Assembly: GCA_030066875.1 (NCBI GenBank) | Contig: JASJAS010000008.1 | Span: forward strand, 1-62,472 | Reading direction: 5' to 3' | Length of the DNA: 62,472 bases | Source of the DNA: Acidimicrobiia bacterium | GTDB lineage: Bacteria; Actinomycetota; Acidimicrobiia; Spongiisociales; UBA5794 | Shown here: positions 18,695-60,577 of the stretch, in pieces | Position numbering within the stretch: position 1 is the first letter of the stretch | Layout: the number at the start of each line of letters is the position of its first letter | Position numbers and translations under genes: made by a program | Notes under the pieces: model-generated | What the model was told of the DNA's origin: nothing | Seen by the model: the letters and a program-made list of their open reading frames with translations, nothing else | Database searches by the model: none

Positions 18695-19711
<1,017 letters not shown>

Positions 19712-25246: not shown

Positions 25247-25274
25247 TTACACACTGGGAACCGTGCTCCCGAGG

Positions 25275-27205: not shown

Positions 27206-27236
27206 TCGAAGCACGACGAGACGCTAGATAGTGCGC

Positions 27237-27266: not shown

Positions 27267-27364
27267 CGCGATTCAAGTCGGTCTTCCGATGGTCGCCCTG
27301 GGCTGACGATGCCCTCGCTGGGCCGCTAAGCTGCACCGCGCACGTCGATCATCGGGAGGCGACC

Positions 27365-42516: not shown

Positions 42517-44196
42517 TTGAGGCTCAGACGTAAGCTGCCGAATCTCTATCCAATGATTGTTTCGTCGTCTACGCGTGCGGGCGCAGATCGCACCGCGCAC
42601 GACATGGATCGCCTCGAGGAAGTCATTGTTCGGGTCACGACCTGGGTGTCATTGGCCTTCCTCGTGTTGCTCCTTGCCACGGGAGCCATCACCGGTGATG
42701 AGAAGTTCTTCGTGCGTGCGCTCAACCCGCTATTGCCGGGCGCAGCCGGAGTCTGGATGCTGCTCAAAGAGCAGCCGCGAGCCCTAGTGCAGCTCGGCGC
42801 CGGCGCAATCGCGGTGGCGACGACCACCGGCCTGGCCGACATCGCGTCACGGCCGGGGGCACTGCTCGGTTTGCTCAGCATGGGGATCGTGGGTGCGCTG
42901 TTGGTGCGGCGCCACGTGGTGATCTACCTGGTAGTGGCCGGCACAGCGCTGTTCGCCGTATCCATGTGGTGGGCATCGAGCGACCTATCACCACGCGACC
43001 GGGCGGTGGAAGCCGCCGGACCCGTATTCGCCCTACTGCTGACTGCAGGTCTGGTCATCTGGTTGAAGCGGGCCCTGCTAATGGAGGGCGAGCGTCGTCA
43101 CGAGGCGGCTAAGGCGCTTGCCGCTTCTGAAGAGCAGTTCCGGACGGCGTTCGAGACCTCGGCGGCAACGATGGCTCTGGTTCGTGCCAGTGACTTGCAG
43201 TTTCTCAGGGTGAACCAAGCTGGGTGTGAGATGCTCGGATACACCGAGGACGAGCTATTGAGAATGACTGTTCCTGAGGTGATTCATCCCGACGATCAGG
43301 TAGCCAGTCGAACACGTATGAGACAACTGCTGGCAGGAGAAGAGCAGGGTACGAGAGGTGTAGTTCGCTACCTCAAGAGCGACGGGTCGATCGTCTACGG
43401 GCTCGTGTCGGCGGCACTCGTCAGCGATGCGGACGGAAACCCGAGTCATTTCGTGGCGCAACTGGTTGACACAACGGACCAGCATCACGCCGAGCAGCGC
43501 CTCATGGATCTGCTCGCCTCCCGGGACGAGCTCATCGCGTCGGTGTCGCACGAGCTGCGGACACCGCTCACCGCGGTTCTGGGTTATGCGAGTCTGTTGC
43601 TCGAAGAGTTGCCGGGGACACCCGAAGGCTACGAGGACATGCTCCGCGAGATCTTCAGTCAGGGCCGAGACCTCGTCGGAATCATCGAAGACCTGCTCGT
43701 CTTTGCGCAATCCGACTCAGACTCGATAACGGTCAAGCCGGTTCAGCTCGATGTGCGCGATCAGGCGACGCTGGTGCTGGAGTCGCTACGGACCGAGCTC
43801 TCGGTGGATCACATCGATCTGGTTGGCCCGCGGGTCGAAGCATTCGGAGATCCGCTACGAGTCCGGCAGGTGCTGCGGAATCTGCTCTCCAATGCCGTGC
43901 GCTATGGAGGTAGCTCCATCGTCGTCGAGATGTCCGAATCCAATTCCACGGCTCGCATCGTGGTCTCCGACGACGGCTCAGGAGTACCCCGGGAGGATCG
44001 CGAACGGATCTTTGAGCCGTATCAACGGTCCCAGCCGAAAGATGGGTTGACGGCTTCCATTGGCGTTGGGCTTACCGTCGCCCGCCGGCTGGCCCGACTC
44101 ATGAACGGCGACCTCACCTACGAGTATCGGGACGGACGGAGCCGATTCTCGCTCTCGTTGCCGAAGTACCAAGCTCGCAAGCTCCGCTCAGCCTGA
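42517..44196 (+). CDS. Orphan TM-PAS sensor histidine kinase (HisKA)
   Basis: About 6 TM helices, PAS (VNQAGCEMLGY, IHPDD), ASVSHELRTPLT, NLLSNAVRY, DDGSG, GVGL; start uncertain; no adjacent response regulator. Confidence 0.92.
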   Translation: MRLRRKLPNLYPMIVSSSTRAGADRTAHDMDRLEEVIVRVTTWVSLAFLVLLLATGAITGDEKFFVRALNPLLPGAAGVWMLLKEQPRALVQLGAGAIAVATTTGLADIASRPGALLGLLSMGIVGALLVRRHVVIYLVVAGTALFAVSMWWASSDLSPRDRAVEAAGPVFALLLTAGLVIWLKRALLMEGERRHEAAKALAASEEQFRTAFETSAATMALVRASDLQFLRVNQAGCEMLGYTEDELLRMTVPEVIHPDDQVASRTRMRQLLAGEEQGTRGVVRYLKSDGSIVYGLVSAALVSDADGNPSHFVAQLVDTTDQHHAEQRLMDLLASRDELIASVSHELRTPLTAVLGYASLLLEELPGTPEGYEDMLREIFSQGRDLVGIIEDLLVFAQSDSDSITVKPVQLDVRDQATLVLESLRTELSVDHIDLVGPRVEAFGDPLRVRQVLRNLLSNAVRYGGSSIVVEMSESNSTARIVVSDDGSGVPREDRERIFEPYQRSQPKDGLTASIGVGLTVARRLARLMNGDLTYEYRDGRSRFSLSLPKYQARKLRSA

Positions 44197-44294
44197 CCTG
44201 CGTTGGTCGCCCCGAAATGGGGCCCATTCCTCATGCGAACTAGGCTCAGCTGGCCGGGTCGGTACTGGGCAAACGGGATTGGAGGTGACCGCGG

Positions 44295-46937
44295 GTGGGC
44301 GGCATGGTTCCGCTTCGAGTGAACCACGAACAGCGCACGTACGTGTTCACTCAGCCAGAGGTCACCATCGGCCGTGAAGCGGGTGTAGACGTCGTCATAG
44401 ATGTGCCCGACGTGTCACGGGTTCACGGCATCGTCAGATGGATCCATGACGAGTGGCATTTCACCGACAATTCGAGCCGCAACGGGAGCTTCCTGGCGGG
44501 GAGTCGTGTCAACGAGGTGGTGATCGATGGTTCGCTCACGGTCAATCTCGCGGGTCGAACCGGACCGGAGGTCACGTTCTCCCCAGCGATCGATCTTGCC
44601 ACGGAGGTGACCGCTACGACATCTCGGCTCGTGGGCGATATTGGCGTCGTTTCCGCAGTGCACGACACGAGGAGGGACTCGACAACTCTGGGGCGGGCTC
44701 CGGACAACGACATCGTGGTCGACGACCTTGAGGTCTCTCGCCACCACGCCGAGATGAGGACATCGACCGAGGGCCAGCTCGAAATCGTTGACCTGGGGAG
44801 CCACAACGGCACCTATGTCAATGGTGTTCAGGTGGAACGAGCCACGCTGAACGACTTCGATCTCGTGACTGTCGGTCACCACATGTTCCGGGTTCTCGAC
44901 GGTGTGCTAGAAGAGTTCGTCGATGCGGGCGCGGTGCAGTTCGAAGCCATTGGTCTCGGGGTGGAGCTCCCGGGGGGTTTTCGGATCCTGGATCAGGTCA
45001 GCTTCACGTTGCCGGAACGTAGCTTGGTCGCGGTCCTGGGGCCAAGCGGTTCCGGCAAGACGACCCTGTTGCGGGCGCTCACCGGGTTCAGTCCCGCCAC
45101 CGAGGGTCAGGTCATCTACGGCGGCCGGGATATGTATGCCTCGTACGCAGATGTGCGGCAACGTATTGGCTACGTTCCCCAGGACGACATTCTCCATAAC
45201 GAGCTCACCGTGCGCCAGGCACTGCGTTACGCAGCCCGGCTGCGCTTCCCGCCTGATGTACCGGCCGAAGACATCGCCGAGCGGGTTGACCAAGTCATCA
45301 ACGAATTGGGACTGGCGCATCGCGCCGACGTCGCCATCTCATCGCTCTCCGGGGGTCAGCGCAAACGAGCCTCGGTGGGGTTCGAGCTACTGACGAAGCC
45401 GTCGCTGCTGTTCCTCGACGAGCCGACCTCAGGACTGGATCCGGGATACGAGCGCGCCCTGACCCAGTTGCTGCGGGAGCTGGCAGACGGCGGCAGAAGT
45501 ATCGTCGTGGTCACTCACAGCGTGCAGAGTCTCGACCTGTGCGATCGGGTCGTCATGCTGGCACCGGGCGGCCGGTTGGCCTACTTCGGGCCACCTGACG
45601 AGGCTCTTCGCTATCTCGGCTGCGACTCGTTCGCCGAGGCGTATGTGCTGCTTGCCGACCCGGACGGACCGGATTGGCACCAGAACTACCAGGCAAGTCC
45701 GGCTCATCGAACCTATGTAGAGCTGCCCAACGCAGGCACCCGTGTGGAAGAGGCTGAGGCGCCAGAGGCGGCCGCACCAGTCCGGCAACGCGGCTGGTTC
45801 CGCCAATACCGCACCCTGACACGCCGCTACGCATCGGTCATCTGGCAGGATCGCAAACTCACCACCTTGCTGGCATTGCAGGCCCCTTTGCTGGCGCTGT
45901 TGATGCTGATTGCGATGGGGGAGGGTCGTCTCGCCCCGAGGACCGGACCCGGACTGTCGACGGCCTCCCTGGTCCTGGCGGTGCTTGTGCTGGCCGCCAC
46001 CTGGCTGGGTATGTCGAACTCGGGTAGGGAGATTGCCAAGGAAACCGCAATCTATCGGAGAGAGCGGGCGATTGGCCTGTCCACCTCGGCGTATGTCGCT
46101 TCCAAGGTGACGGTGCTGGCCTTCATAACGCTGTTGCAGACCACTGTTCTGGTAGTCGTCGGCCTGGCACGTCAGGGGGTCTCATCGCAGGCTGCTCTCA
46201 TTGAACCGGGCATGCTCGAATTGGTGCTTGGGGTCGGGCTCAGCGGCATCGCCGCGGTGAGTCTGGGGTTGCTGATATCGGCCTTGGCCAAGACACCGGA
46301 CCGCGCCATGAGCCTGCTCCCTGTGGTGCTTATCGTGCAGCTGGTTGTTGCCGGCGGTTTCAAGGACATGGCCGAGAAGCCGCTGCTGCGTGAGATCAGC
46401 TATGTGGCAACCGCCCAGTGGGGCTTCTCCGCGGCGGCATCAACCGTCGACCTCAACGACCTGCAGTTGCCCAACGACTGCCTGGCAGAAGTAACCCGGA
46501 TCGACGACGAGACCGGGATCGAGGATCGGGCGGCATCGTTGGCGCGCTGCGCGTTGTCTGATGCGGCGCTCATGCAAGCGATGCAGACCGTGATCGCACG
46601 ATCCCAAGAACCGCTACCGATCGAGGCCGACTGTGTTACCCAACTCGAAGGCCTCGATGCCGCAACCGTGGAAGGAATGAGTTCCGCGGAGATCGATGAG
46701 GCGCTGCTGTGTACGGCGGCTCACCCTGAGGCGGCGACCGCCGCGGTTGCGGACGAAACGGCTCTCGAGACTCTGGCAGCCCGGGCGGGACCGGTAAACG
46801 ACAATCATCCATTTCGCTTCTGGGATCAGACACCGCGTCACTGGCTCATCAACATGACACTGCTCGGGTTGCTCACAGCGTTCGGATTGGTCGGTACGTG
46901 GTGGGTGCTGCGCCGACGCGATCCTGAATCGAGCTAG
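44295..46937 (+). CDS. FHA-FHA-ABC ATPase-permease fusion transporter (Rv1747-like)
   Basis: Two FHA domains (IGR/VSRVH/SRNG; LGR/VSRHH/SHNG), GPSGSGKT, LSGGQRKR, DEPTSGLD, ABC-2 membrane domain (AKETAIYRRER). Confidence 0.95.
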   Translation: MGGMVPLRVNHEQRTYVFTQPEVTIGREAGVDVVIDVPDVSRVHGIVRWIHDEWHFTDNSSRNGSFLAGSRVNEVVIDGSLTVNLAGRTGPEVTFSPAIDLATEVTATTSRLVGDIGVVSAVHDTRRDSTTLGRAPDNDIVVDDLEVSRHHAEMRTSTEGQLEIVDLGSHNGTYVNGVQVERATLNDFDLVTVGHHMFRVLDGVLEEFVDAGAVQFEAIGLGVELPGGFRILDQVSFTLPERSLVAVLGPSGSGKTTLLRALTGFSPATEGQVIYGGRDMYASYADVRQRIGYVPQDDILHNELTVRQALRYAARLRFPPDVPAEDIAERVDQVINELGLAHRADVAISSLSGGQRKRASVGFELLTKPSLLFLDEPTSGLDPGYERALTQLLRELADGGRSIVVVTHSVQSLDLCDRVVMLAPGGRLAYFGPPDEALRYLGCDSFAEAYVLLADPDGPDWHQNYQASPAHRTYVELPNAGTRVEEAEAPEAAAPVRQRGWFRQYRTLTRRYASVIWQDRKLTTLLALQAPLLALLMLIAMGEGRLAPRTGPGLSTASLVLAVLVLAATWLGMSNSGREIAKETAIYRRERAIGLSTSAYVASKVTVLAFITLLQTTVLVVVGLARQGVSSQAALIEPGMLELVLGVGLSGIAAVSLGLLISALAKTPDRAMSLLPVVLIVQLVVAGGFKDMAEKPLLREISYVATAQWGFSAAASTVDLNDLQLPNDCLAEVTRIDDETGIEDRAASLARCALSDAALMQAMQTVIARSQEPLPIEADCVTQLEGLDAATVEGMSSAEIDEALLCTAAHPEAATAAVADETALETLAARAGPVNDNHPFRFWDQTPRHWLINMTLLGLLTAFGLVGTWWVLRRRDPESS

Positions 46938-47569
46938 TCGAGAGGTTCTAGCCGCCACTCGCTGAAGCGGAAGTTGTGATCGCCGACGGCCACCCGGTCG
47001 AGTTCCAGGATCGGGGTTCGGGTCACTCGCTGACCGTTCAGATAGGTTCCGTTGTGACTGCTCAGGTCGACGAGTTCGTACTCGTTGTTGGGGGTCACTC
47101 TGATCTCGGCGTGATGCCACGACACGGCTGGGTCTTCGACAACTACGTCGTTGTCCGGAGCTCGTCCGATTGTGATCACTTGGGCGGACTTCCGCAGCGA
47201 CCGGGTTGCCCCGGTAGCCTCCGGTTCCGAGGCGCGGGGGAGCGCGGTGGTCTTCTCACTGAGATAGGGCAAGGCTGGGGTCAGGGTGAGGAAAGGTCCG
47301 GTGGGGTCTCCGAGAGCGATCTGCATAGGCGCTCGGATTTCGACCCTGGTGACCCGGGCACCGTTGAGAAAGGTGCCGTTGGCGCTGTCCTTGTCTTCGA
47401 GGATCCAGATGTCATCCTCGAAGGCGAGCACGGCGTGCCTTCGGGATACGCGGCGGCTGGCAACGTGCAATGCAGCATCGGGATGACGCCCGATGGTCAC
47501 TATCTCATCGGGCCGGAAAGTGACGGTGGTTCCGTCGTGGGTCACCCTTATCAGCCCAGCGTCGTTCAT
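46934..47569 (-). CDS. Stand-alone tandem FHA-FHA protein
   Basis: IGRHP..VSRRH..SANGTF and IGRAPDND..VSWHH..SHNGTY; start set at ATG 47569. Confidence 0.92.
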   Translation of the reverse strand: MNDAGLIRVTHDGTTVTFRPDEIVTIGRHPDAALHVASRRVSRRHAVLAFEDDIWILEDKDSANGTFLNGARVTRVEIRAPMQIALGDPTGPFLTLTPALPYLSEKTTALPRASEPEATGATRSLRKSAQVITIGRAPDNDVVVEDPAVSWHHAEIRVTPNNEYELVDLSSHNGTYLNGQRVTRTPILELDRVAVGDHNFRFSEWRLEPLD

Positions 47570-47667
47570 ACTGCCCGGCTCATTTTTGGCACATGCGTAC
47601 TGTAGGCGATGGCCCGCGATGAGCAGTGGAAACGGACCGAAATGGGGTGGTGGAGTACACTGCAGCA

Positions 47668-50600
47668 ATGGCGCAATCCGCACCTCTCGATTTGGGGATT
47701 CCCGGTCTCGAAGATGCGATGCTCTTGGGTCGAGGTGGGTTTGCGGTGGTTTATCGGGCGTATCAGCCTGCCTTCCGACGCACAGTTGCGGTCAAGGTTG
47801 TCTCGGTCACCGAGGTCGATGAACTGACCCGCGAGCGATTCCGCCGCGAGTGCCAGGCAATGGGTCTGCTGTCGGAGCACCCATCGATTGTCACCGTGCT
47901 TGAGGCTGGCTTTCTCGACGATGGTCGTCCCTTCCTGGTCATGGCATACATGCCGGAAGGCTCACTGCAGGACCGGCTGCGCCAAGGCCCCCTCGGATGG
48001 CAGGAAGCGACCCGGATCGCGGTGAAACTGGCTGGAGCCCTTGGGACCGCCCACCAGGCCGGGGTGCTGCACCGTGATGTGAAACCGGCCAATGTGCTCG
48101 TATCGCAATACGGCGAACCGCAACTGGCCGACTTCGGCATCGCCCGCGTGGCGGGCGGTCAAGAGACGTCGTCTGGGGTCATCACCGCTTCGTTGTCCTA
48201 CGCGCCTCCGGAGATCGTCGATGGGCAGCGCCCGTCTGTAGCTTCCGATGTGTACTCGCTGGGAGCCACAGTCCATGCGCTGATGACTGGAGCCGCTCCT
48301 TTCTGGAAGGATCGCGAGGACTCGATTGCCGCGCTGTTGAATCGGGTGATGAATCACCCGCCGCGTGATCTCAGGGAGTTCGGTGTCCCCTCCAACGTAG
48401 CTGAGGTGCTCGAGCTCACGATGGCGAAGGATCCTCAGGATCGGCCGGCATCCGCTGCCCAGTTCGGCAGGCTGCTCCGTCTGGCTGAGGACGAGAACGG
48501 GTTGCGCCCTACCCAGATGACGGTCTACAAGCCGGCTGACGAGCCACATCCCCCGACTCCGCCGGTCGAAGCACCACCGACCGAAGTAGCGCCCAGCATC
48601 GAGGATTCCGAGGACTTCACCGACTCACCGACGGATATCGTCGACACCGACGAGATGCTCACTGCCGCCGCCACAGCGACGGCAGCTGCCACATCGATCA
48701 ACGAGACCCCATCAGTGGACGGTCCGCCGACCGGTACCGTCGAGCAAGATGCAGCCGAAACCGAAGTGATCGACGAGCAGCAGACGGCTGAAGTTGTGGC
48801 TCCGGTTGCGGATGGGCTGGTGGCGGCGCCGGACGTGGAGGCATCGGAGCCCGTTGTGGAACCCGAGATGGCCCCTACTGCCACGGTGGCTGCCGCCAGC
48901 GCTGCAGCGCCCCCGGACGCGACGACTGACCTGCCCGCCGGGCCCGAGGCCGGTCAGGAACCGGAGGCGCCGGGCCGGCGCCGTGGCCTTTGGCTTGGGG
49001 TGGCGGCGGTTGTGGCGCTGCTCGCGGTGGTCGGCGGGTTCTTCTTGACCAGAGGCGGCGACGCCGGGCCTATAGACACGACGATACGAAGCACAAGCGA
49101 CGGGAGCTCAGATTTCGAACCGCCGCCTTGGTGGACAGCCGACCCGGTTCTCGGCTCGGCGGTGCTGGTTGATCATGAATCGCATGTAGACCGAAACTTC
49201 GAGCAGCTCGCTGTAGGCTCGGGGCCGGTGACCGGCGAGCAGCGCTGGGTCGCACCCACTCCGCCGGCGTGGTCGCCGGAGTTCTATCACGGCTGGATGC
49301 TCGTAGGATTGTCCGAGGGCGAACAGGATCCGTACACCGAACAGCAGATTGAAGAGAAACGCTTCTTTCGCGAGCCGGCGTCGGCCGAAGGCGACTATGC
49401 CGCCGTAGTCCGCTTCACGCCCACGCAGCTCGACGGCTATCTCCTGTTCAACCTCGAACACAACTCGGCAGACGGCAGTGAGCACCGGATGTTCTCGATT
49501 GATCTCGGGACCAACAGCTCGGGGTTTGCTTTCACCACTCAAGATGGGGACCAATCCGGCGATGACCCCTTCCAGCGGCCAATCGAACTCGAGGTCGATA
49601 AGTCGTACGACTTAGCCCTCGTGGCGACTACAACTGGGGCATTCCGGGCTTTGGTCTGGCCTTCCGGAGAGATGGCGGCCGGAGTCGATGAAGTCGCCGG
49701 AATCGAAACCGAAGCCGGACATGAGTTCGTCACCGACAACTGGATCGCAAGCATCGGGGTGGGTCCGGGTTCGGCGATATCGATAGACGAGTTTTGGGGC
49801 TTCCGGCTTCCGACCCCAGGCGGTGATGCGGCGGTGCCGGACGACGAGGCCGAGCCCGGGCCGACGATTACATTCGATTTCCCGCAGTGGTGGCTCGCCG
49901 ACCCTGACTGGTCGCGGGCTGAGCTGGTCGATCACGAAACCCACGACAGTTACAACTGGGTTGTCGGCGACACCGCGGCCTCTGTGTGGCACTCGCCCCC
50001 ACCTCCGCCGACGTGGCGTGGGACGTTTGGAGGGGGGCTGATGACGATTGCGACGGAAAGGGGAGAGTCCGACAACATCGGTATTCCGATTGAGAGCAAA
50101 CGCTTCTGGCGGGCACCAACCACTTCGACAAACGAGTATGCAGCGGTGTTCCGTTTGATCGTCAACGAGCTCGGTGACGGGTTCCAGATCTTCATTGAGA
50201 GCGGGGCCTTCGACGCAGGCTTCTTTCGCAACGTCGTGCTCGTCGTAGACGGAGAGGGGCAGGTGTTTGCGCATTACTCACAGGGTGATGACGACTCTTT
50301 CCTAATCCAAGACCTTGACAACCCCATGAAGCTCCTCCCCGGCACCTCTTACGATGTTGCACTCTTCGCCGAAGGAGGTGGCGTCTTCAACCTCCGCCTT
50401 TGGCCCACCGGCCAGTCGCCACAGGAGCTAGAAGATGTCCCAGGAATACGGCTCGAACTAGGGGATGAGTTCGTGGTGACAGGGGGGTGGGACCCCGGCA
50501 TGGACGTTGTCGCCGGGGCATCCGTTTCCATTGACGAGTACTGGGGCTTCGAGCTACCCGGCGCTGGCGATGAGGCGCCGCTGGCGTCAGCCGATGTCGG

Positions 50601-51522: not shown

Positions 51523-51577
51523 GCGTGGTGCGGAGGGGTGACGGCTAGTCTCGGCTGTGCGCGTTTGCGGAGGGTGG

Positions 51578-53881
51578 ATGGAGTTCAGGATTCTCGGGTC
51601 GCTCGAGATCGAGGCTTCTGACGGATCACCGCTGCAGGTTTCAGGACCCAAGCAACGCGGTCTTCTTGCATTGCTCGTGATTCATGCGAACGAAGTCCTC
51701 TCCACCGATCGGATCATCGATGCGCTCTGGGGGGAGGAGCCTCCGTCAGGAGCCCTGAACTCGTTGCGCTTTCACATTTCCAAGCTCCGGTCGGCTCTCG
51801 GGGATGAGCAGGAGAGGCTGGCAACCAAGGGGCCCGGCTACGTGTTGCTTGCAAGTCCCGGGGAAGTCGACGCGCAACGATTCGAATCTGCAGTGGCCGA
51901 GGCGGTTGCACTGGTTCCCGACAACCCGGAAGCGGCTGTCGCTCGATATCAAGACGCCATCGAGTTGTGGCGGGGTCCCACCCTCGCCGATTTCGAATAC
52001 GAGGACTTCGCTCGCACCGAAATCGCCCGATTGCGGGAGCTGCGTCTCGCCGCCGTCGAGGGAAGGTTCGAAGCAGAGCTCGCTGCCGGTCGTCATGACG
52101 AGTTGGTAGGAGAATTGCGCACACTGGTTGACGAGCATCCCCTACGCGAGCGGCTCTGGGCCTCACTGATGACTGCGCTGTACCGCAGTGGCCGCCAGGC
52201 GGAAGCTCTCCGGGCGTATCAGGAAGCGCGCTCCACGCTGGGTGATGAACTCGGCATTGAGCCCTCCGAGGAGCTACGTGATCTCGAGGAGAAGGTGCTC
52301 CTCCAGGACGAATCAATCAAGACCCCGGACGCCCCTCGTCGCGCGCACAACCTTCCCGCCAGAGTCAGTCGCTTCGTTGGCCGTGATCAGGAGATCTCGA
52401 CCATCGGCAAGCTGCTTGGTCGGAGCCGGTTGGTAACGCTCATGGGCGTTGGTGGTGTCGGTAAGACGAGTCTTGCTCTCGAGGTTGCCGGGCGTCACGT
52501 CGACGAGTTCCGGGACGGTGTCTGGTTGGTCGACCTGGCGACGGTGACGGACGCTACTGGGGTGTTGGTTGCTGCTGCGGAAGCCCTTCGAGTGCGCACC
52601 CGATCTTCCGAGCACATCCTCGCCGACATCCAGCTGCGGATGGCCAACACCGAAGTGCTTGTCATCTTGGACAACTGCGAACACGTAATCGCTGCCGCGG
52701 CTGATCTCGCCGCCGACCTCCTTGCGAAGTGCCCTGGAGTGAAGATTCTGGCCACAAGCCGGGAACTGCTGTCAGTTCCCGGCGAGATCACCTTTGGTGT
52801 GTCGCCGATGACGCTCGGCGATGACCATGTTGCGGGCGATGCTGTCGCGCTGTTCACCGACCGGCTTGAGGCCTTCTTGCCGGGCACCGGCCTAGGCGAT
52901 GAAGAGCAGCAGACGGTGTACCGGATTTGTCGTGCGGTCGATGGCTTGCCTCTCGCAATCGAGCTCGCCGCCGCCCGCACCCGTGCCCTCTCGCTCGACG
53001 AAGTGGAACGTCGCCTGAGTGACCGCTTTGCACTGCTGGCCGGGGGCAGCCGAACCGCAGCCCCCCGGCAGCGAACTCTGCGGGCAACCATCGACTGGAG
53101 CTACGACTTGCTCTCGGACTCCGAGCAAGGGCTCTTTGCCGTGTTGTCGGTGCTGCCGGGCTCGTTCACCGCCGAAGCTGTGGAAGCGATTGTTCGAGCA
53201 GGCAAGTGGGAAGATGATGCGCTCGACCTGCTCGCAGCCCTGGTAGACAAGTCGTTGGTCGCCCGGATCGGCGGCCGCTACTACCTGCTGCCTACGTTGC
53301 GGCGCTACGCCGCCGGGAAGGTAGACGGGAAAGCGATAGCACGAACGAGGCGCGTCCTGGTCGAACACTATGCCGGACTCGCTTCCCGGCTCGAAGACAG
53401 CTTCTTTGCCACAGAAGAGCCTCAGTTAGCCGAGCACGTTGTCGACGAACGCTCCAATATGCGATCGGCCTTGGCGTGGTCAATGGAAAGCGGTGACACG
53501 GATGCGGCGCTGACTGTTGCTGCGTCTCTGGCCTTCTATTGGATCCGATCGGGCGTTTGGACAGAGGGCTGGTTGAGACGGGGAGTAGGTGCCGGGGACG
53601 ATGTTCCACAGACGGTCCAGCTCCAGGAGGGATTGTTGCTGCTGGAAGGGATTGCGGAACCGGCCGACGCTCTAGCGGCCCTTGCGCAGCTAGTCGAGAA
53701 GGAGGGCGAGGCGGCTAGAGCCACCCGTCTCCTCGGAGCTGCGCACCAGATCCGCCATGACCTCGGCCACGAGCCACCGCGGGCGGAAGACGACCTCGCG
53801 GGCCGTCTGGAGCTCGCTCTAGGCAAGGAGTCGTTTGACGACGAGTGGCAAGCAGGACGAACTGTGGCGCAGCGCCGGTGA
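51578..53881 (+). CDS. SARP (wHTH-BTAD) - STAND ATPase regulator (AfsR-like) with a short C terminus
   Basis: MEFRILGSLE, LVDEHPLRERLW, ALYRSGRQAEAL, HNLPARVSRFVGR, GVGGVGKTSLA, LDNCEHV, DGLPLAIELAAAR. Confidence 0.93.
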   Translation: MEFRILGSLEIEASDGSPLQVSGPKQRGLLALLVIHANEVLSTDRIIDALWGEEPPSGALNSLRFHISKLRSALGDEQERLATKGPGYVLLASPGEVDAQRFESAVAEAVALVPDNPEAAVARYQDAIELWRGPTLADFEYEDFARTEIARLRELRLAAVEGRFEAELAAGRHDELVGELRTLVDEHPLRERLWASLMTALYRSGRQAEALRAYQEARSTLGDELGIEPSEELRDLEEKVLLQDESIKTPDAPRRAHNLPARVSRFVGRDQEISTIGKLLGRSRLVTLMGVGGVGKTSLALEVAGRHVDEFRDGVWLVDLATVTDATGVLVAAAEALRVRTRSSEHILADIQLRMANTEVLVILDNCEHVIAAAADLAADLLAKCPGVKILATSRELLSVPGEITFGVSPMTLGDDHVAGDAVALFTDRLEAFLPGTGLGDEEQQTVYRICRAVDGLPLAIELAAARTRALSLDEVERRLSDRFALLAGGSRTAAPRQRTLRATIDWSYDLLSDSEQGLFAVLSVLPGSFTAEAVEAIVRAGKWEDDALDLLAALVDKSLVARIGGRYYLLPTLRRYAAGKVDGKAIARTRRVLVEHYAGLASRLEDSFFATEEPQLAEHVVDERSNMRSALAWSMESGDTDAALTVAASLAFYWIRSGVWTEGWLRRGVGAGDDVPQTVQLQEGLLLLEGIAEPADALAALAQLVEKEGEAARATRLLGAAHQIRHDLGHEPPRAEDDLAGRLELALGKESFDDEWQAGRTVAQRR

Positions 53882-53884
53882 GCC

Positions 53885-53901
53885 CTCAACAAGTTCTCAA
53901 C
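53885..53901 (+). promoter_or_regulatory. Two CTCAAC direct repeats at 11 bp spacing
   Basis: CTCAAC at 53885 and 53896, upstream of the amino-acid SBP gene. Confidence 0.6.
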
Positions 53902-53926
53902 GGAACCGGCGCAAAGTAAGGGCGTT
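53902..53926 (+). promoter_or_regulatory. Candidate ECF sigma (SigH/SigE/SigR-like) promoter
   Basis: GGAAC-N17-GTT immediately after the CTCAAC repeats. Confidence 0.3.
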
Positions 53927-53949
53927 ACGAAGGTGAAAGGAGATATCTG

Positions 53950-55035
53950 ATGATCCGGCGACTGGCGCTAGTAGCCGTCCTTTTGCTCATCGGGCCTGCT
54001 TGCAGTGGTGACGACCAGACCGTCGCTGAAACCACCACGACTCAGGTGACGACTACGACGGTCGCCGAAGCCGGCCCCACCGAAACCCTGGAGATCGTGC
54101 GCGCCCGGGACCGGCTGGTCTGCGGACACGGTCTAGGGATCCCTGGTTTCGCCGACTTGGGACCGCGCGGCGAGCTCACCGGTCTCATGCTCGATTTCTG
54201 CCGCGCGGTTGCAACTGCGGTTGTCGGAGATGCAGCCAAGGTGGATTGGGTCTCCCTGGAGCCCAGTGAGATGATCGATGTCCTGGCTCAAGGTGATGTG
54301 GACTTACTGACCCACTTCACCACCTGGACCTTCAGTCGGGACAACGCTTCTCCGGTCGATTTCGGTCCAACGTACTTCTTTGATGGACTCGGGATTCTGG
54401 TTGCGGCCGCGGAGCATCAGGCGTCCGATGGCTTGGACTCGCTGCAGGGCGAGACGGTCTGCACCGTCGCAGGGACAACAAGCGAAGCGAACCTACGGTC
54501 GGCGGCTGAACACGCAGGAGTCGTGCTCGACATCCGAACCTTCCCGGACCCCTTCCAGATCTGGGACGCCTTCCGGGCCGGAGAGTGCGAGGCCAACGTA
54601 GGGGAGCGTTCGGTGCTCTTTCTGACGCGCGGCGAGCACTTCGACTCGCCCGAGGATGGGCTGGTGCTCGACCTCGTTCTGGCGCAGGAGCCACTTGGTC
54701 CGGTTTACCGGGAGGGTGACCCCACGTGGGCGGACATCGTCAACTGGACCATGTATGCCCTGCTGGTAGCCGAGGAGAAGGGGCTGACGAGCGAGAATAT
54801 CGAAGAGAGGGTGGCGACGAGCACCGATCCTGAAGTCCTGGCGCTATTCGCTGGCCAAGGGCTCTCGCTGTCTGAGTCGATGGATTTGGATCGCGAGGCC
54901 TTCCGAAGGGTGATCAGGGTTCTCGGCAACTATGACGAGATCTTCGAACGCAACCTCGCCCCGCTGGGTGTGAGTCGAGGGCTGAATGCATTGTGGCGTG
55001 ATGGCGGGCTGATGTTTGCACCGCCGGCGCGCTAG
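53950..55035 (+). CDS. Orphan AapJ/BztA-like amino-acid ABC substrate-binding lipoprotein
   Basis: GPA|C lipobox, DFCRAVATAV, TTWTFSRD, FGPTYFFDG, VCTVAGTTSE, EPLGPV, WADIVNW, GNYDEIFERNL, WRDGGLMFAPP; no permease nearby. Confidence 0.92.
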   Translation: MIRRLALVAVLLLIGPACSGDDQTVAETTTTQVTTTTVAEAGPTETLEIVRARDRLVCGHGLGIPGFADLGPRGELTGLMLDFCRAVATAVVGDAAKVDWVSLEPSEMIDVLAQGDVDLLTHFTTWTFSRDNASPVDFGPTYFFDGLGILVAAAEHQASDGLDSLQGETVCTVAGTTSEANLRSAAEHAGVVLDIRTFPDPFQIWDAFRAGECEANVGERSVLFLTRGEHFDSPEDGLVLDLVLAQEPLGPVYREGDPTWADIVNWTMYALLVAEEKGLTSENIEERVATSTDPEVLALFAGQGLSLSESMDLDREAFRRVIRVLGNYDEIFERNLAPLGVSRGLNALWRDGGLMFAPPAR

Positions 55036-58000
55036 CCCTCCGATCCAGCCTGCCCTTTCGACCAGGCTTCGTACGCCTGCCAGTCGGCTTCGATGAGCGA
55101 GAAGATGGCTTCGACCCCACCAAGTTCGCCGGCGTGGATTTCAGCAATGCCGGCCAGGAAGCTCCCCGGGGTCCCCAACTCGAATATGTACCCGGGGTGG
55201 AGTTCCCGCATTGATCCCGGGCCCGCGGTGCCGATTGCGCCCGGCATAAGGTCCGACCCGTCGAAGCGGAAACGATTCTGCTGCAGCCCGCTGCGAATCA
55301 GCTCCCGGGCGTGTTGCTGAAGGGGGTCTGCAGCGGTAGGGGGGTCATTGTCGAGGTGAGGAAGCGACGACCACAAGCCTGGGTAGTCGGACGATGCGAG
55401 AAAGCGCATCAATTCCCGAATCTCGGGCCTGTCGCGCATCGCCATGATCATTTCGCCACCGCCGAGGATGTAAGGCGACCGTTCTTCGGAGATCGGGGGG
55501 AGCGGAAACATGTCGTAGCCAATGCCGAACTCCAGATCCGGAGGCGGTGCTGGTCCCATGTACATGGCGCAGCCAGGAGGGTCGGAGGCGAACAGGCGAT
55601 GGACCTCCTCGAAGTCGATCAGCAACACGCCTCCTTCGCCTGTTTCCACAAGACCCTCACCAAGTGCGATCTTCGCAAACTCCTCTCCGGCAGACACGAT
55701 GTCCGGATGATCAAACGGTATGTCGTTGCGTATCCACTGGTCGTAGATCGCCGCGCCGGAGTTCGCCAGCACCAGGCTCTCAACCCAGTCGGTTCCCGGC
55801 GCGCCAGTCCAGTGCCCCAGGAATTCGCCCATGCACCATGGGCCCTGGCCATCCGCAGCCAGACGCTCGGTCACCGCCAGCAACTCACCCCAAGTTTGCG
55901 GGACGTCATAGCCGGCGGCGCTGAAGACGTCCGCCCGGTAGAACACGAGGTTCTTGATGCTGAGCTGTGACCACAAACCGAGGGTGGATCCCGAGGTGGC
56001 AGGCCATTCTCCCGATTCGCCGATCGTGACTAGCGAGAGCAAGTAGTCACCGTATCGGTCGCCCAGGGCACCTCGGTCGAGGTACATCCCGATGTCGATC
56101 ACTGTGTCCGTACCAGCGGAGACAATCCGGCCCGGATCGCTTGCGACGACCAGGTCGGGCAAGAACTGTGGTGGGCTGTTCCCGGTAAAAAGCCCAGTCT
56201 CGTATTCGATCTCTATCCCGGTCGATTCTTGGAATTCGCCGAGGGCCGCGGCGAATCCGGAAACCTTGGGTTCGCCCCAGAACGGATCCCGCAGCACTGC
56301 AGTCGTGCCGGCCAGAGGCTGGTTGGGATCTGCGGTGTCACCGTTCGGCTCGACAACGGCCGTCATCAGAACCGTGGTGTCGGAGAGCGAGCATGATGCG
56401 GTCTGGAAGTATGTCAGGCACTCGGAGTTGCCGAAGACCCTACCGTCGGCGGCTAGCGTCAGTGCCTCGGCCACCCACGACAGCGGAACGTCGTATAGCC
56501 CCTGCGGACCGTCCGGGCCGGGACGCACTAACACGGGGCCGCCGTCGGCGGGGTACGGGACTTGCGAGGCTTGCAGCGTCCAATGCATGGCATCCCTGAC
56601 CTCGGGCAGCACCTCACCCGAGATGTCGGCTGTGACTGTTGCGGCCTCGAGGCTCAGCAATGCTGCCAATTGCGGGTCGATCGTCAGTCGATCGAGTGCC
56701 GCAGCAGCCAACTCGCGGGCCCGGGGCGTCGCCTCCACCAATGCCAGCTCCCGTTGCCGATCGGCCTCGCGTCGTTGCGCAACCGCAAAGACCGTAAGCG
56801 TCACCGCCGTCACGATGGCGGTGGCCAGCACGGCGACCAGCCCCCAGGTACGCCGCTTCGACCGCCGCTCGAGCCGTAGTTGTGCCGCTACCCGGGCTCG
56901 CTCGATTTCCTCGGCCTCTTCCCGGGCACCCACACTCGCCTGCAAGAAGGTCCGCTCGGCAGCAGTGAGGGCAATCTCCGAATCCTCCGCCCAGACGGCA
57001 AGCCGGTCGAGGGCGCCACCGCTGAGCAAGTAGTCGTCACTGCGATCCGCTTCGACCCACTCGCGGCATGCCGCAGTGAGTCTGCGGTGGGAGCGAACAT
57101 CATCGCGATGATCCTCGATCCATTGGCGCAGCCGAGACCATTCGCGAAGCAGCGCTTCGTGCGCGACCTCGACGGTCGCCGCTCGGGTCCGCGGATCGCG
57201 ATCGAAAGAGAGCAGACGGTACCTGCCAAAAGCTTCAAGCACGTCCTGTGTTGCCTTATGGAAGCCGAAGATGGAGTCGAGTTCACCCCGCCGCACCCTG
57301 CGCCGAGAGTCCTCGGCGCCCTCCTCGACCGTCACCAGTCTGAGGAAGATTTGACGGGCAGCGGCCTGAGCGGCCGCCGACAAGGATTCGAAGACCTGTT
57401 CGGCCCGGGTCGCCAAAGCTGCCGAGACACCTCCTGAAGCGTCGTAGGCAGCAGCCGGTATCAGGTGCCCGTCGCGGCGCTCGAAGGCCTCGGTCATCGC
57501 ATATTGAACGAGCGGGAGCATCCCGGGCTGACCGGCAACATCTCCGGCGATTCGTTCTGCGAGACCGGGTTCGAGGCCAACGCCAATCGTTCGCGCCGGC
57601 TCGGATATGGCCCGCAGCATCTCTGCTGCGCTGAGTGGCATCACTGTGACCATCTGACTGCGCACCAACTCGCCAAACCCGGCGTACTGAAGTGGCCGGT
57701 CGTAGAAGTCGGCCCGCAACGTGATCACGACGCGAACGCGGTTGCGTTCGTCGGCCACGGTCTCAGCCAGCATGTGGAGAAAGGCAGAGCGGGTCGCTTC
57801 GTCTTCGACCAACGTGAACAATTCCTCGAATTGGTCCACCACCAGCAGCAGCTCTGCGGAGTCATCACGCAGAATGGCCGCCGCTGCTGCAGACAGGACG
57901 GTGAGATCAACGGAGGCGTGTTCGCCGGCTGAGATGCGACGCAATGCCGCGGCAAGTGCATCGAACGGGTACTGACCTGGATACATGGAGACGATGAACC

Positions 58001-59714
58001 ACCGGTTTGATCCGGGCACGGCTCCTCTTCGCAGCGCAGGGATCAGACCCGCGTTGACGGCACTCGATTTCCCGGACCCGCTCGGACCAACCACCGCGAG
58101 GAAGCGACCTGTCGGGCCGCGTTGTGAGAGGAAGTCCACAAGGTCGGCGGTCAGCCTCTCGCGGCCGAAGAACACGCCGGCGTCTCCTTCTGCGAAGGGG
58201 CGTAGGCCCAGATATGGGTTGGGCAGGTCGGCGTCTCCGGCGGGCGTTGGCTTTGCCCGCCCGGCCGCCTCGCCGAAGGACGCGACGAATTCCAAAGCCG
58301 ACATCGATTCGCCGGCCGCTGTCGCTTCGGCCAGTTCGCGGAGAGCCGGGGACGCACCCTCCATGGAGTCGAGGATCGATAGGACGACTCGAGCCAATCC
58401 GGCAACGTCCGCTGACATCACAGCGTCGCGGTCCGTGCCAGTCGCCGCATCCGCGGCGAGGTCACGGGCGACACCGAAGTCCGATAGATAGGCGTTACGA
58501 TCCTCGTCGAAGAGGATGTTCGAGCCTTTCACATCGCCGTGAACGACACCCTGTCGATGGGCGGCGTCCAAACCGCCCCCGACCTGTTCAACCATCCTGA
58601 ACAGCGCATCCCAGGTCCATGCTGAGGTGACGCTGGCAGCGCTGCCTCCACGAAAGAGACGCATCACGATGAAGGCGCCCCGGGGCTCCCTCCAGAAGTC
58701 ATAAAGCGGCACGATATGGGGGTGCTCCAACCTGGCAACCAACTGGGCCTCTGCATCGAAGGCACGGACAAAGGCGGGATCGTCGGCGAACCTGGGCCGG
58801 ATCACCTTCACTGCGACCTCGCGTCCGATTGAGTGCTGGTAGGCGACGTGGACCTCTCCAAAGCGACCGGCACCGATTTGTTCCCTGAGCTCGTACCCAC
58901 GTATGGAGCGCCCGGTAGCCGCAGCGGTCTCGGTGGGCTCGAGAACCGACACTGGACCGGATGGGGTCACGTTGAGAGAGGCGTCCTGCATCAAGATCTG
59001 CCGCTCGAGCTCCTTTAGCTCTGGAGAAGGATCGATCCCTAGTTCCTCGACCAGCGTCCGGCGGGTACGTTCATACGCGCGGAGCGCTTCGGACTGTCGC
59101 CCGGAGCGATACAAGGCAAGCATGAGCTGCCCACCGAACCGCTCTCGGAGCGGGTACTCCTGCACCAGAGTTTCGAGTTCGCCAACCAACCCGCTGTCGT
59201 AACCCAATGCCAGCTCTGCATCGATGCGGTACTCGATCGCGGTGAGCCGAAGTTCGTCGAGGCGGGTGATCTCTGGGCGCAACGCCGGTTCACCGCCGAG
59301 GTCTGCATAGGGTGCGCCCTGCCACAGCTCCAATGCTTCCCAGAGCATCCGGGTAGCGGCTGCCGGGTCGGCATCGATGACTGCTCGCGCCTGCGTCGTG
59401 AGCGCGGAGAAACGATGAGCGTCGATCAGCTCAGGCTCAACCGTGATTACGTAGCCGGGATCCTTGCGGAGCAAGGTCTCCGGTCGAGCGCCCTCGATGG
59501 CGCGCCGCAGGTGCGAAACGTAGGACTGCAGAGTTCGCTTCGCTCCTTCGGCGGGCTCGCCACGCCAAACATCTTCTAGGAGGCGATCGGTCGACACCAC
59601 CTCGTTGGCATGGGCGAGAAGGAGAGCGAGTACCAGGCGCTGCCGCGGGCCACCCAGGGGCAGCCGTTCACCCTCGTGATGGACCTCGAGAGGCCCCAGC
59701 ACCCGAAAATCCAC
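55032..59714 (-). CDS. SARP - degenerate Ser/Thr kinase - nSTAND1-type NTPase - TM - extracellular family-1 (AglE-like) solute-binding domain
   Basis: MDFRVLGPLE/BTAD; VAVK, HGDVKGSN, DFG; NPYLGLRPF, GPSGSGKSS, VVDQFEELF, LRADFY, VAHEALL..W; one TM; SIKNLVFY...VPQTWGEL...PWCMG...TDWVE..YDQW..IPFDHP. Confidence 0.9.
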   Translation of the reverse strand: MDFRVLGPLEVHHEGERLPLGGPRQRLVLALLLAHANEVVSTDRLLEDVWRGEPAEGAKRTLQSYVSHLRRAIEGARPETLLRKDPGYVITVEPELIDAHRFSALTTQARAVIDADPAAATRMLWEALELWQGAPYADLGGEPALRPEITRLDELRLTAIEYRIDAELALGYDSGLVGELETLVQEYPLRERFGGQLMLALYRSGRQSEALRAYERTRRTLVEELGIDPSPELKELERQILMQDASLNVTPSGPVSVLEPTETAAATGRSIRGYELREQIGAGRFGEVHVAYQHSIGREVAVKVIRPRFADDPAFVRAFDAEAQLVARLEHPHIVPLYDFWREPRGAFIVMRLFRGGSAASVTSAWTWDALFRMVEQVGGGLDAAHRQGVVHGDVKGSNILFDEDRNAYLSDFGVARDLAADAATGTDRDAVMSADVAGLARVVLSILDSMEGASPALRELAEATAAGESMSALEFVASFGEAAGRAKPTPAGDADLPNPYLGLRPFAEGDAGVFFGRERLTADLVDFLSQRGPTGRFLAVVGPSGSGKSSAVNAGLIPALRRGAVPGSNRWFIVSMYPGQYPFDALAAALRRISAGEHASVDLTVLSAAAAAILRDDSAELLLVVDQFEELFTLVEDEATRSAFLHMLAETVADERNRVRVVITLRADFYDRPLQYAGFGELVRSQMVTVMPLSAAEMLRAISEPARTIGVGLEPGLAERIAGDVAGQPGMLPLVQYAMTEAFERRDGHLIPAAAYDASGGVSAALATRAEQVFESLSAAAQAAARQIFLRLVTVEEGAEDSRRRVRRGELDSIFGFHKATQDVLEAFGRYRLLSFDRDPRTRAATVEVAHEALLREWSRLRQWIEDHRDDVRSHRRLTAACREWVEADRSDDYLLSGGALDRLAVWAEDSEIALTAAERTFLQASVGAREEAEEIERARVAAQLRLERRSKRRTWGLVAVLATAIVTAVTLTVFAVAQRREADRQRELALVEATPRARELAAAALDRLTIDPQLAALLSLEAATVTADISGEVLPEVRDAMHWTLQASQVPYPADGGPVLVRPGPDGPQGLYDVPLSWVAEALTLAADGRVFGNSECLTYFQTASCSLSDTTVLMTAVVEPNGDTADPNQPLAGTTAVLRDPFWGEPKVSGFAAALGEFQESTGIEIEYETGLFTGNSPPQFLPDLVVASDPGRIVSAGTDTVIDIGMYLDRGALGDRYGDYLLSLVTIGESGEWPATSGSTLGLWSQLSIKNLVFYRADVFSAAGYDVPQTWGELLAVTERLAADGQGPWCMGEFLGHWTGAPGTDWVESLVLANSGAAIYDQWIRNDIPFDHPDIVSAGEEFAKIALGEGLVETGEGGVLLIDFEEVHRLFASDPPGCAMYMGPAPPPDLEFGIGYDMFPLPPISEERSPYILGGGEMIMAMRDRPEIRELMRFLASSDYPGLWSSLPHLDNDPPTAADPLQQHARELIRSGLQQNRFRFDGSDLMPGAIGTAGPGSMRELHPGYIFELGTPGSFLAGIAEIHAGELGGVEAIFSLIEADWQAYEAWSKGQAGSEG

Positions 59715-59841
59715 GGCTCCCTTTCCGCGGTCGCGACCTGCCAGATGTTAACGGTTGAGTCGGATTCCTCTGCTTCGCATCCGGGTCTCAGTGCTCGTCG
59801 ACACTGGAACGGGTCCTCGTAGCCCAGAACAGCTCCGGGGT

Positions 59842-59869
59842 CTCAACATCCTCTCAACACCTGACCAAC
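59842..59869 (+). promoter_or_regulatory. Three phased (C/A)(T/C)CAAC repeats at 11 bp spacing
   Basis: CTCAAC 59842, CTCAAC 59853, ACCAAC 59864; an additional GTTGAG at 59754, 40 nt upstream of the SARP start. Confidence 0.65.
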
Positions 59870-59902
59870 AAGCCCGCAAGCGCTCGGGCGGACGCTGCAG
59901 AT

Positions 59903-60577
59903 ATGCAGCAAACAACCCGCCTCCTCAGCACAATCGCACTGATCTTCTCGCTACTCCTGGCCGCTCAGCCAGCATTCGCCAGTTCATCGTCAGGTCGCCG
60001 GGCGGGTGCAGATCGCCCGGCCACCTCCGTGCTCGGGGCGACCGAGCAGGAAACGGAGATGGTGGAATGGGCACTCGGACGTTTTGCGGCGGCGGGCATG
60101 GAACTCCCAGCGGTGAAGGTTGGGTTCTTCACCGATTATGAGGACTGCCTGGGGTTCATTGGATACTTCCGCACGTCGACCCGCACGGTGTTCATGTGCA
60201 ACCGGGGCGGGGAAGAGAGAGTTCCGGAGCATACGCTGATTCATGAACTCGGTCATGCTTGGGCGGATCACAACCTTGAGGCGGCGGATCGGGAAGCCTT
60301 TATGGAACTCCGTGGCGTTGAGTTCTGGAACACGGGTGGAAGCGGTGCAGCGTCCCCGGCCTGGTGGCAACGAGGCTACGAACACGCTGCAGAGATCATC
60401 GCGTGGGGCCTTGCCGAGACGCCGTTCCACAGCATGTGGTTGCACACCGAACTGTGCACCGATCTCGCTAGCGCATTCACCGCACTTACTGGTATCGAGC
60501 CGCTCAACGACTCGACCAGCTTTTGCAAGTGCCAAGAGGCAGGCTCGCCTTACAAGCAAGCGTGCCCGGCGGACTAG
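59903..60577 (+). CDS. Secreted zincin-like (HExxH) protein
   Basis: Signal peptide ending AQPAFA, HTLIHELGHAW, downstream YEHAAEIIAWGL as candidate third ligand, several Cys. Confidence 0.7.
   Translation: MQQTTRLLSTIALIFSLLLAAQPAFASSSSGRRAGADRPATSVLGATEQETEMVEWALGRFAAAGMELPAVKVGFFTDYEDCLGFIGYFRTSTRTVFMCNRGGEERVPEHTLIHELGHAWADHNLEAADREAFMELRGVEFWNTGGSGAASPAWWQRGYEHAAEIIAWGLAETPFHSMWLHTELCTDLASAFTALTGIEPLNDSTSFCKCQEAGSPYKQACPAD

Follow-up and report, generated by a model that had tools for sequence, protein, structure and literature searches.

The contig JASJAS010000008.1 of assembly GCA_030066875.1, from a bacterium of the class Acidimicrobiia, was analysed over 62,472 nucleotides (the window), and between positions 42,517 and 60,577 it carries eight consecutive genes for signalling proteins, here called g1 to g8 (Table 1), which an earlier note had read as a single surveillance network. 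Our comparison with relatives indicates that these 18 kb are a chance neighbourhood of three independently inherited signalling units, namely the histidine kinase gene g1, a module A (g2 to g5) and a module B (g6 to g8). Most of the value lies in module B, which from its sequence appears to pair a SARP-STAND receptor that spans the membrane with a cognate, conserved promoter code in front of a private gene for a secreted zincin-like protein: g7 is probably an undescribed membrane-spanning receptor that binds DNA itself and switches on the neighbouring gene g8, which encodes a secreted protease-like protein. For the explanation as a whole, that is, three units with g7 as a transmembrane one-component STAND receptor driving SARP-type leaderless promoters, we put the probability at about 65%.

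The genes g1, g2, g4, g6, g7 and g8 were searched against the whole genomes of 40 relatives, and contig neighbourhoods were inspected for the closest database homologues (loci such as L040-L044, L047, L048, L061 and L062); domains were called from Pfam scans and a listing of open reading frames (ORFs), and transmembrane (TM) helices and signal peptides by hydropathy-type prediction. Because g1, g3-g5 and g6-g8 occur apart in relatives, the 18-kb island is not one conserved system. In L040 and L042, which hold g7 homologues of 58-59% identity, a g8-like gene (55%) is divergent from a g7-like gene that converges on a g6-like gene (60%), in the same order and orientation as in the window; these two metagenome contigs carry the full g6-g7-g8 triad, flanked by unrelated genes and without g1-g5. 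The g7/g8 pair is also kept in L043, where the contig stops inside g7 and the position of g6 lies off it. G010, a genome of the same genus, has module A with its g2 (82% identity), g3, g4 and g5 ordered as in the window; the assembly is 82% complete, and a search of it yielded no g7 orthologue. L061 and L062, homologues of g4, a Ser/Thr protein kinase (STPK)-Bmp gene, at 50-52% identity, hold g3/g4/g5 or g4/g5, arranged as an FHA-FHA gene divergent from an STPK-Bmp gene that is followed by a SARP-AAA gene, and have no FHA-ABC exporter, g6, g7 or g8. The gene upstream of the g2 orthologue in G010 encodes a SulP/STAS permease, not g1, and g1 has no conserved neighbours, its relatives in G002 and G018 being located elsewhere in the whole-genome search. 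Among all loci examined, modules A and B are adjacent only in the genome of the window (G000, a 3.16-Mb assembly), and no cis-element common to them was found. GC content is flat across the window (0.61-0.645), so there is no compositional island. Independent shuffling among relatives was one of the outcomes that the earlier note had named as speaking against its network, and it is what we observe, the genes of the 18 kb being shuffled as separate units; the coupling that it had proposed is supported for parts of the cluster, by conserved synteny and shared cis-elements, and not for the whole stretch.

The domain architecture of g7 underlies our proposal that it is a receptor. The SARP portion is well supported (BTAD, E = 1.6e-44; Trans_reg_C, E = 2.6e-11), and the nSTAND1 domain (PF20703, E = 6.5e-119) covers positions 1-378 of the 379 of the model, with GPSGSGKSS as Walker A and LLLVVDQFEE as Walker B. 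Since the single TM helix (residues 960-978) is preceded by basic residues, the solute-binding protein (SBP) domain is predicted to face outward, and the segments for kinase, NTPase and DNA binding are predicted to be cytoplasmic; the region beyond the helix, about 580 aa with SBP_bac_1, would be extracytoplasmic. A misassembly or gene-fusion artefact was ruled out by more than 100 independent full-length homologues with the architecture of g7. Database proteins matching g7 at E <= 1e-20 number 5,423, and the best 120 homologues are all SARP + Pkinase + nSTAND1 + SBP_bac_1 proteins of 1,460-1,750 aa; they come from metagenome bins of Acidimicrobiia and other Actinomycetota, and their NCBI name is only 'extracellular solute-binding protein'. 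Paralogues in G000 carry other regions after the TM helix, beta-propeller-like in C78 and C86 (read from sequence) and Bmp in C13. Some g7 homologues (about 1,740 aa) also carry a class 3 adenylate cyclase annotation. In L034 (G001:C122:9000-28999), three full-length SARP-kinase-nSTAND1-SBP_bac_1 genes stand in tandem (12476-27425), preceded by one divergent g8-like gene (11669-12223).

The promoters flanking g7 point to its targets. SARP sites are direct repeats of heptamers, often three, with 4-nt spacers and placed over the -35 region (PMC10972967), and the arrays at g8 and g6 bear this published signature of SARP-dependent promoters, which makes them putative g7 sites. In the g7-g8 spacer, TCTCAAC, TCTCAAC, GACCAAC and CCGCAAG follow one another in exact 11-bp steps, and the array ends 10 nt before GACGCT. 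The 12-base pattern CTCAAC-N5-CTCAAC, expected about 0.26 times genome-wide from base composition, occurs three times in the 3.16-Mb assembly, both strands counted; two of the three are the g6 and g8 promoters, each pointing at its gene, and a coding ORF contains the third. L040, L042 and L043 keep the g8 array, and a GCTCAAC/CCCAAC pair is found upstream of the g6 orthologue in L040. In L044, where a g8 relative (47%) stands beside another SARP-kinase-nSTAND1 gene, four (T/C)CACAyG heptamers at 11 bp are followed by the same core, GGCGGACGGTGCGGGC-ATG. Of six g8-like promoters inspected in G000, five consist of three to four units of heptamer + N4, then 10-11 nt, GACNGT (GACGCT at g8), N6 and ATG, with paralogue-specific heptamers (CTCAAC, CTAAC, CTGCAC, GCTAAT and CTAAG) in an identical geometry. 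Triple heptamers at 11 bp occur at about 15 loci in the whole G000 assembly, four of them immediately upstream of g8-like genes; eight additional loci have the strict GACNGT-N6-ATG where their g8-like gene starts, and an exact-seed search found 10-11-bp heptamer arrays in 6 of 12 other divergent spacers. The operator-like repeats that had been noticed as shared by the genes of the island are real for g6 and g8, as CTCAAC heptamers at 11-bp spacing, and are not shared by any of the others. The word CCGAAATGGGG, present in the g1-g2 and g3-g4 spacers, was considered as such an operator and set aside: it is not conserved in the orthologous G010 locus, and its sharing is probably due to chance.

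The association of g8-like genes with SARP-nSTAND1 genes recurs well beyond the closest orthologues. Orthologues of g8 (52-55% identity) are divergent from those of g7, and g8-like genes lie within 1 kb of, and divergent to, SARP-nSTAND1 genes in at least 15 places, 3 in G000 and 12 in twelve other genomes; the pairing spans genus, family and order (13 genomes of the order including G000). Two g8-like genes of G000, at C65:5562-6204 and C23:15948-16700, have full arrays and GACNGT-N6-ATG, and no adjacent SARP gene; their neighbours, read from sequence, resemble nitroreductase and xylose isomerase. Since some array-bearing g8-like genes lack an adjacent SARP gene, regulation in trans also appears to occur, and these two may be controlled by target-less SARP-STAND proteins such as C13, C86, C118 and g5. 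At C77:2042-5332 of G000, and in L047 and L048, a g8-like gene is paired with a LAL-type STAND regulator (AAA_16...LuxR/GerE, 853 aa) and not with a SARP gene; the C77 promoter keeps GACGGTGCGGGC-ATG and has no heptamer array.

The product of g8 has no match in Pfam or NCBIfam, and its domain is undescribed: the family comprises 41 proteins among 5.8 billion. g8 itself has a signal peptide and two conserved cysteines, and H114, E115, H118 and E160 are invariant in 35 homologues. Relatives were not found by peptide patterns in reference genomes; homologue and whole-genome searches did find them. The AlphaFold2 model (pLDDT 84) gives weak zincin-fold matches in Foldseek, with a best E of 5e-3 and TM-scores of at most 0.37, to Wss1, IrrE, minigluzincins and the catalytic domain of a large gluzincin toxin; such matches weakly suggest 'zincin-like' and say nothing about toxicity. 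With minigluzincins and small zincins (selecase, Wss1/SprT, IrrE) g8 shares HExxH with a downstream Glu and a small helical catalytic core, and it differs from them in its signal peptide, in the poor structural scores and in falling into no catalogued family. The second candidate target, g6, is by sequence a transporter-type amino-acid SBP: its best solved relative is the amino-acid-binding 4z9n (E = 2e-61), and GlnH structures match only at E = 5e-9. The GlnX-like multi-pass partner and the PknG that accompany a GlnH-type sensor are not in the locus, and a SARP box of its own gives g6 the look of a regulated output, not of a sensor. An orthologue (60%) occupies the same position in L040, and one is also present in L042. 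As a speculation, a protease and an amino-acid binder would fit protein scavenging.

Our current working hypothesis is that g7 is a single-pass, N-in/C-out, one-component receptor, in which the extracellular SBP_bac_1 domain would bind a ligand and the signal would cross the membrane to the nSTAND1 NTPase switch. The resulting oligomer would align the N-terminal SARP DNA-binding domains on three to four heptamers at 11-bp spacing, which would sit over the -35 region of the g8 promoter, with a two-heptamer array upstream of g6. There, g7 would recruit RNA polymerase to a -35-less promoter with the -10-like GACNGT placed 6 nt before the g8 ATG, so that the g8 mRNA would be leaderless, and the outputs would be the secreted gluzincin-like g8 and the amino-acid-binding lipoprotein g6. 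In this scheme we infer the DNA binding by g7, the identity of the ligand, the kinase substrates, the protease activity of g8 and the leaderless transcription.

Parts of this scheme have precedents. Like AfsR and other large SARPs of Streptomyces, g7 fuses an OmpR-type winged helix-turn-helix (wHTH) and BTAD to a STAND NTPase and is associated with heptamer repeats over the -35 region. It differs from AfsR in that its NTPase belongs to the nSTAND1 clade, not to NB-ARC, in lacking a TPR sensor, in crossing the membrane once and in placing an SBP outside. Ser/Thr phosphorylation by AfsK modulates the activity of AfsR, and in g7 a kinase segment is part of the same chain. ToxR and CadC also have a cytoplasmic N-terminal OmpR-type wHTH, one TM helix and an extracytoplasmic sensor and bind direct repeats near the promoter; g7 departs from them in that a BTAD, a kinase and a STAND NTPase of about 400 aa fill the stretch from its wHTH to the membrane and in its SBP-fold sensor, and the likeness is one of functional analogy only. 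In the GlnH-GlnX-PknG-GarA/OdhI system, SBPs are sensors for STPK/FHA signalling, and g6 belongs to the same SBP_bac_3 class as GlnH; here a GlnX-like partner is missing, and g4 and g7 carry their SBP covalently, within the receptor chain. The use of solute-binding proteins as signalling sensors rather than for uptake is documented (PMC6069109, PMC8050422). A review of SARPs distinguishes small, medium, large and SARP-LAL classes without mentioning transmembrane forms (PMC10972967), and the nSTAND1 literature treats this domain as a conflict-system NTPase, without mention of SARPs (including PMC8195603). Neither a transmembrane SARP nor a SARP-nSTAND1 receptor turned up in the literature searched, whose coverage was incomplete.

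Several observations weigh against our view of module B and of its separation from module A. The g7 kinase is incomplete: it covers Pfam positions 1-152 of 263 and aligns only to residues 12-180 of PknA, keeping the G-loop, Lys, Glu, the Asp of HGD, Asn and DFG and lacking the activation segment and the APE motif. Among the paralogues the kinase is shortened (g7), degenerate (C78), complete (C86) or absent (C13), and from these sequences it appears to be an optional module of the family. Chromosomal DNA binding by a membrane-tethered factor with about 960 cytoplasmic residues is, for a SARP, no more than plausible by analogy with ToxR. The g5-g6 spacer has only two clear heptamers, CCTCAAC and TCTCAAC at 11 bp, and this box starts 3 nt after the stop codon of g5, which lies directly upstream and could itself be the binder. 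Some g8-like genes are partnered by a STAND regulator of LuxR type or stand beside no regulator at all, and a g7 homologue at 44% identity (L041) has a different divergent partner. The contig of G010 stops inside g5, so that an adjacency of modules A and B is possible there. As observations on L041 itself (7349-8000), the partner measures 166 aa, is anchored in the membrane and has LINQGLIPRETL-like motifs in repeated copies, and the spacer contains four CTTCCAG-type heptamers at 11-bp spacing.

These points bear on four other readings of the locus. If the CTCAAC boxes were bound by soluble g5 under the control of the kinase g4 and not by g7, the two modules would be wired together in G000; the SARP DNA-binding domain of g5 is 51% identical to that of g7, and the proximity of the g6 box and the array-bearing g8-like genes without an adjacent SARP, which imply that trans regulation exists, fit this. 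We nevertheless find it rather unlikely: L040, L042 and L043 keep TCTCAAC arrays together with the g7 orthologue, with no g5 on these short contigs, and the loci that have g5 orthologues (L061 and L062) have neither g6 nor g8. That all eight genes form one integrated network, with sensing by SBPs, relay by phosphothreonine/FHA and STAND domains and output by SARPs and the exporter, draws on their contiguity, on their density in signalling domains, on a cyclase-STAND-TPR gene just upstream, on the 3 nt between g5 and the g6 box and on the possibility in principle that g4 phosphorylates g7 or g5. It is quite unlikely, given the separate inheritance of the modules and of g1, the want of any cis-element linking A to B, the non-conservation of CCGAAATGGGG, the only shared word on the A side, and the uniform composition.

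Module B might also be read as a conflict or defence system, in which an NLR-like nSTAND1 sensor of a foreign cue outside the cell would command a secreted metalloprotease effector. nSTAND1 was defined in predicted conflict systems (PMC8195603), and the family is expanded, with varied ectodomains (beta-propeller-like, Bmp and SBP_bac_1) and a private promoter code for each paralogue; against this, the N-terminal effector is a transcription-factor domain and not a toxic enzyme, the sensors here are SBPs of nutrient type, and an amino-acid SBP is among the outputs. When membership in PADLOC defence systems was examined, g7 was matched only through its generic kinase segment and g5 and g8 not at all, and we give this reading little chance. 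Finally, the arrays could be remnants of promoter duplication or chance repeats, the synteny reflecting recent common descent without a regulatory link. The closest orthologous loci are indeed few (three to four), and 6 of the 12 other divergent spacers lack a 10-11-bp array in the exact-seed search. We regard this as very improbable, with two pattern occurrences exactly at the flanking promoters where about 0.26 are expected in all, the same geometry in paralogues despite different heptamers, and a divergent pairing that recurs over genus, family and order.

SARP-STAND regulators are cytoplasmic switches for antibiotic genes in Streptomyces, and, to our knowledge, little has been established about what they sense. 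In g7, the same kind of switch comes with an outside domain that can be recognised as ligand-binding, and a promoter code that can be read lies beside it; module B would offer a testable route from an extracellular ligand through STAND oligomerisation to transcription. It is an open bet, slightly short of even, that module B stands for a class of one-component receptors, transmembrane and NLR-like, that is widespread in Acidimicrobiia and other Actinomycetota and undescribed, and in which a heptamer code specific to each paralogue would connect it with a private, leaderless gene for a small secreted zincin. If so, such receptors would combine a sensor outside (SBP, Bmp or beta-propeller) with an inner part made up of the STAND NTPase switch and a DNA-binding head of SARP type, and a single 3-Mb genome would run several insulated circuits from an outside cue to a secreted protease. 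The g7 family is large (more than 5,000 proteins at E <= 1e-20), with several paralogues in each of G000 and its relatives, and is present in abundant uncultured Actinomycetota; its paralogue-specific heptamers could provide a natural set of orthogonal receptor-promoter pairs. The idea of a single 18-kb system at this locus is also corrected.

Table 1. Genes and sequence elements of the 18-kb stretch (positions in the window)
Feature	Positions	Strand or location	Description	Domains and details
g1	42517-44196	+	membrane PAS-HisKA-HATPase histidine kinase	4-5 TM helices/hydrophobic segments, then PAS, HisKA, HATPase (Pfam)
g2	44295-46937	+	Rv1747-like FHA-FHA-ABC exporter	FHA-FHA, ABC_tran, ABC2_membrane (Pfam)
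g3	46934-47569	-	free FHA-FHA protein, 211 aa	two FHA domains, E = 2.8e-38 (Pfam)
g4	47626/47668-51522	+	receptor Ser/Thr kinase	Pkinase, one TM helix, two ~235-aa repeats, Bmp
g5	51557-53881	+	soluble SARP-STAND, 774 aa	Trans_reg_C, BTAD, AAA/STAND (NB-ARC-like)
g6	53950-55035	+	lipoprotein-like amino-acid-type SBP	SBP_bac_3; convergent with g7
g7	55032-59714	-	putative receptor, 1560 aa	Trans_reg_C, BTAD, partial Pkinase, nSTAND1, TM helix, SBP_bac_1
g8	59903-60577	+	secreted small HExxH...E (gluzincin-like) protein	signal peptide and HELGH; divergent from g7
conserved TACTGTAGGCGA	47598-47609	g3-g4 spacer		invariant in the alignment of window, G010 and L061
SARP-box candidate upstream of g6	53884-53902	+		CCTCAAC + TCTCAAC, 11-bp spacing
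g8 promoter with heptamer array	59841-59902	+		TCTCAAC 59841, TCTCAAC 59852, GACCAAC 59863, CCGCAAG 59874
g8 promoter core	59891-59896	+		10 nt after the array: GACGCT, then 6 nt, ATG at 59903

Module A is a new domain combination inside known signalling schemes. Its core, an FHA-FHA gene divergent from an STPK gene that is followed by a SARP-STAND gene, is found in four loci. The receptor g4 has a TM helix at ORF residues 457-475, with the kinase predicted inside and the SBP-type domain outside; its ectodomain consists of two concanavalin-A-like modules (49111-49824 and 49867-50568) and a Bmp domain (50578-51519). The repeat module has no sequence match in the PDB at E <= 1, and its AlphaFold2 model (pLDDT 80) retrieves 203 PDB matches at E <= 1e-3 in a fold search (lectins, carbohydrate-binding modules and GH16), so that the repeats are predicted to fold as concanavalin-A-like beta-sandwiches. 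The C-terminal domain is a Bmp/PnrA member (PF02608, E = 8.3e-56; 7x0r, E = 1.9e-49; 2fqw, E = 3.9e-41), in which the pocket motifs D.GG..D.SFN, HAAGG.G and GVDSDQ of nucleoside-binding lipoproteins align. Its identity of 67-78% to the lineage's own free-standing Bmp proteins of transporter type, one of which is followed by an importer ATPase, indicates that g4 recently captured a transporter SBP domain. The STPK + Bmp architecture is rare, with three proteins in the set of 5.8 billion plus the one in G010. Between G000 and G010 the g4 kinase domain is nearly identical and the ectodomain 59-65% identical; the concanavalin-like module is tandem-duplicated in g4 (49111-50568), P0163 and P0164 and single in the G010 orthologue (L033:14065-14772). 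The sensor of g4 appears to evolve much faster than its kinase.

The exporter g2 is a single chain with a pair of FHA domains at its N-terminus, an ABC ATPase and a membrane domain of ABC-2 type, the architecture of Rv1747, and the STPK g4 is 0.7 kb off. An ABC exporter with two N-terminal FHA domains encoded beside a receptor-type STPK is known from PknF-Rv1747 of Mycobacterium tuberculosis (PMC3138270, PMC8339232), and G000 also holds an operonic paralogous pair: paralogues of g2 (47-49%) lie directly downstream of an STPK gene in G000:C58 and G006:C22, the kinase there having a DUF6777 ectodomain. Module A differs from PknF-Rv1747 in the free FHA-FHA gene g3 between exporter and kinase, in the lectin-lectin-Bmp ectodomain of the kinase and in that the exporter is dispensable for its core. 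The g2 gene has an orthologue in the same position in G010 (82%), is absent from L061 and is joined to only two of the four core loci; it is an accessory member of the module. Residues 7-207 of g2, its FHA-FHA region, are 41% identical to g3, which G010 and L061 retain.

The gene g5 starts 34 nt downstream of g4, and a g5-type gene always lies directly downstream of the STPK-Bmp gene (G010, L061 and L062). It encodes a SARP (BTAD, E = 1.8e-47; Trans_reg_C, E = 1e-12) in which Pfam detected no TPR. Against the AfsR equivalog NF053617 (SARP + NB-ARC + TPR, about 990 aa) it scores 218.7 bits, with a cut-off of 1430, and covers only model positions 29-634, and by sequence it is an AfsR-like medium-size SARP-STAND. 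A search for SARP boxes of g5 in the spacers of module A found none; the sole conserved element resembles the -10 of g3. This element, TACTGTAGGCGA, is invariant in three loci though their proteins are only about 50% identical, and probably supplies the g3 promoter with its -10 element (TACAGT on the minus strand). The start codon of g4 was placed at ATG 47668 from conservation with G010. TACACT lies 7 nt 5' of this ATG, and the g4 leader is apparently very short or absent.

By analogy with known pairs, ligand-bound g4 would phosphorylate threonines for recognition by the FHA domains of both g3 and the g2 exporter, in the manner of PknF with Rv1747, and might also phosphorylate the co-transcribed SARP-STAND g5, mirroring AfsK and AfsR, the precedent for a kinase acting on a SARP-STAND (PMC10972967). 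Sensing by SBPs with a phosphothreonine/FHA relay, which the earlier note had put forward for an undescribed system, is already precedented in GlnH-GlnX-PknG-GarA, PknF-Rv1747 and AfsK-AfsR. The domain list given there is borne out by the ORF listing and Pfam, with corrections to the strand of the FHA-FHA gene, the family of g8 and the extent of the g7 kinase: g3 is a minus-strand gene that converges on g2 and diverges from g4, and the plus-strand ORF at 46976-47605 has no Pfam domain match. The use of SBP-type domains as extracytoplasmic sensors of single-pass signalling proteins agrees with Pfam and TM prediction for both g4 and g7. It is likewise correct that the SBPs come without an importer, no permease or ATPase of that kind being encoded in 42.5-60.6 kb; free-standing Bmp and amino-acid SBP paralogues are present elsewhere in G000.

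Just upstream of the g1-g8 stretch, a gene at 38247-41348 (+) encodes a 1033-aa class III cyclase-AAA_16(STAND)-TPR protein, for which PADLOC gives only partial matches, to a PycC-like cyclase. A small ORF at 41383-41829 (-) has a weak PHD-like antitoxin match (E = 2.7e-4, under the Pfam cut-off).

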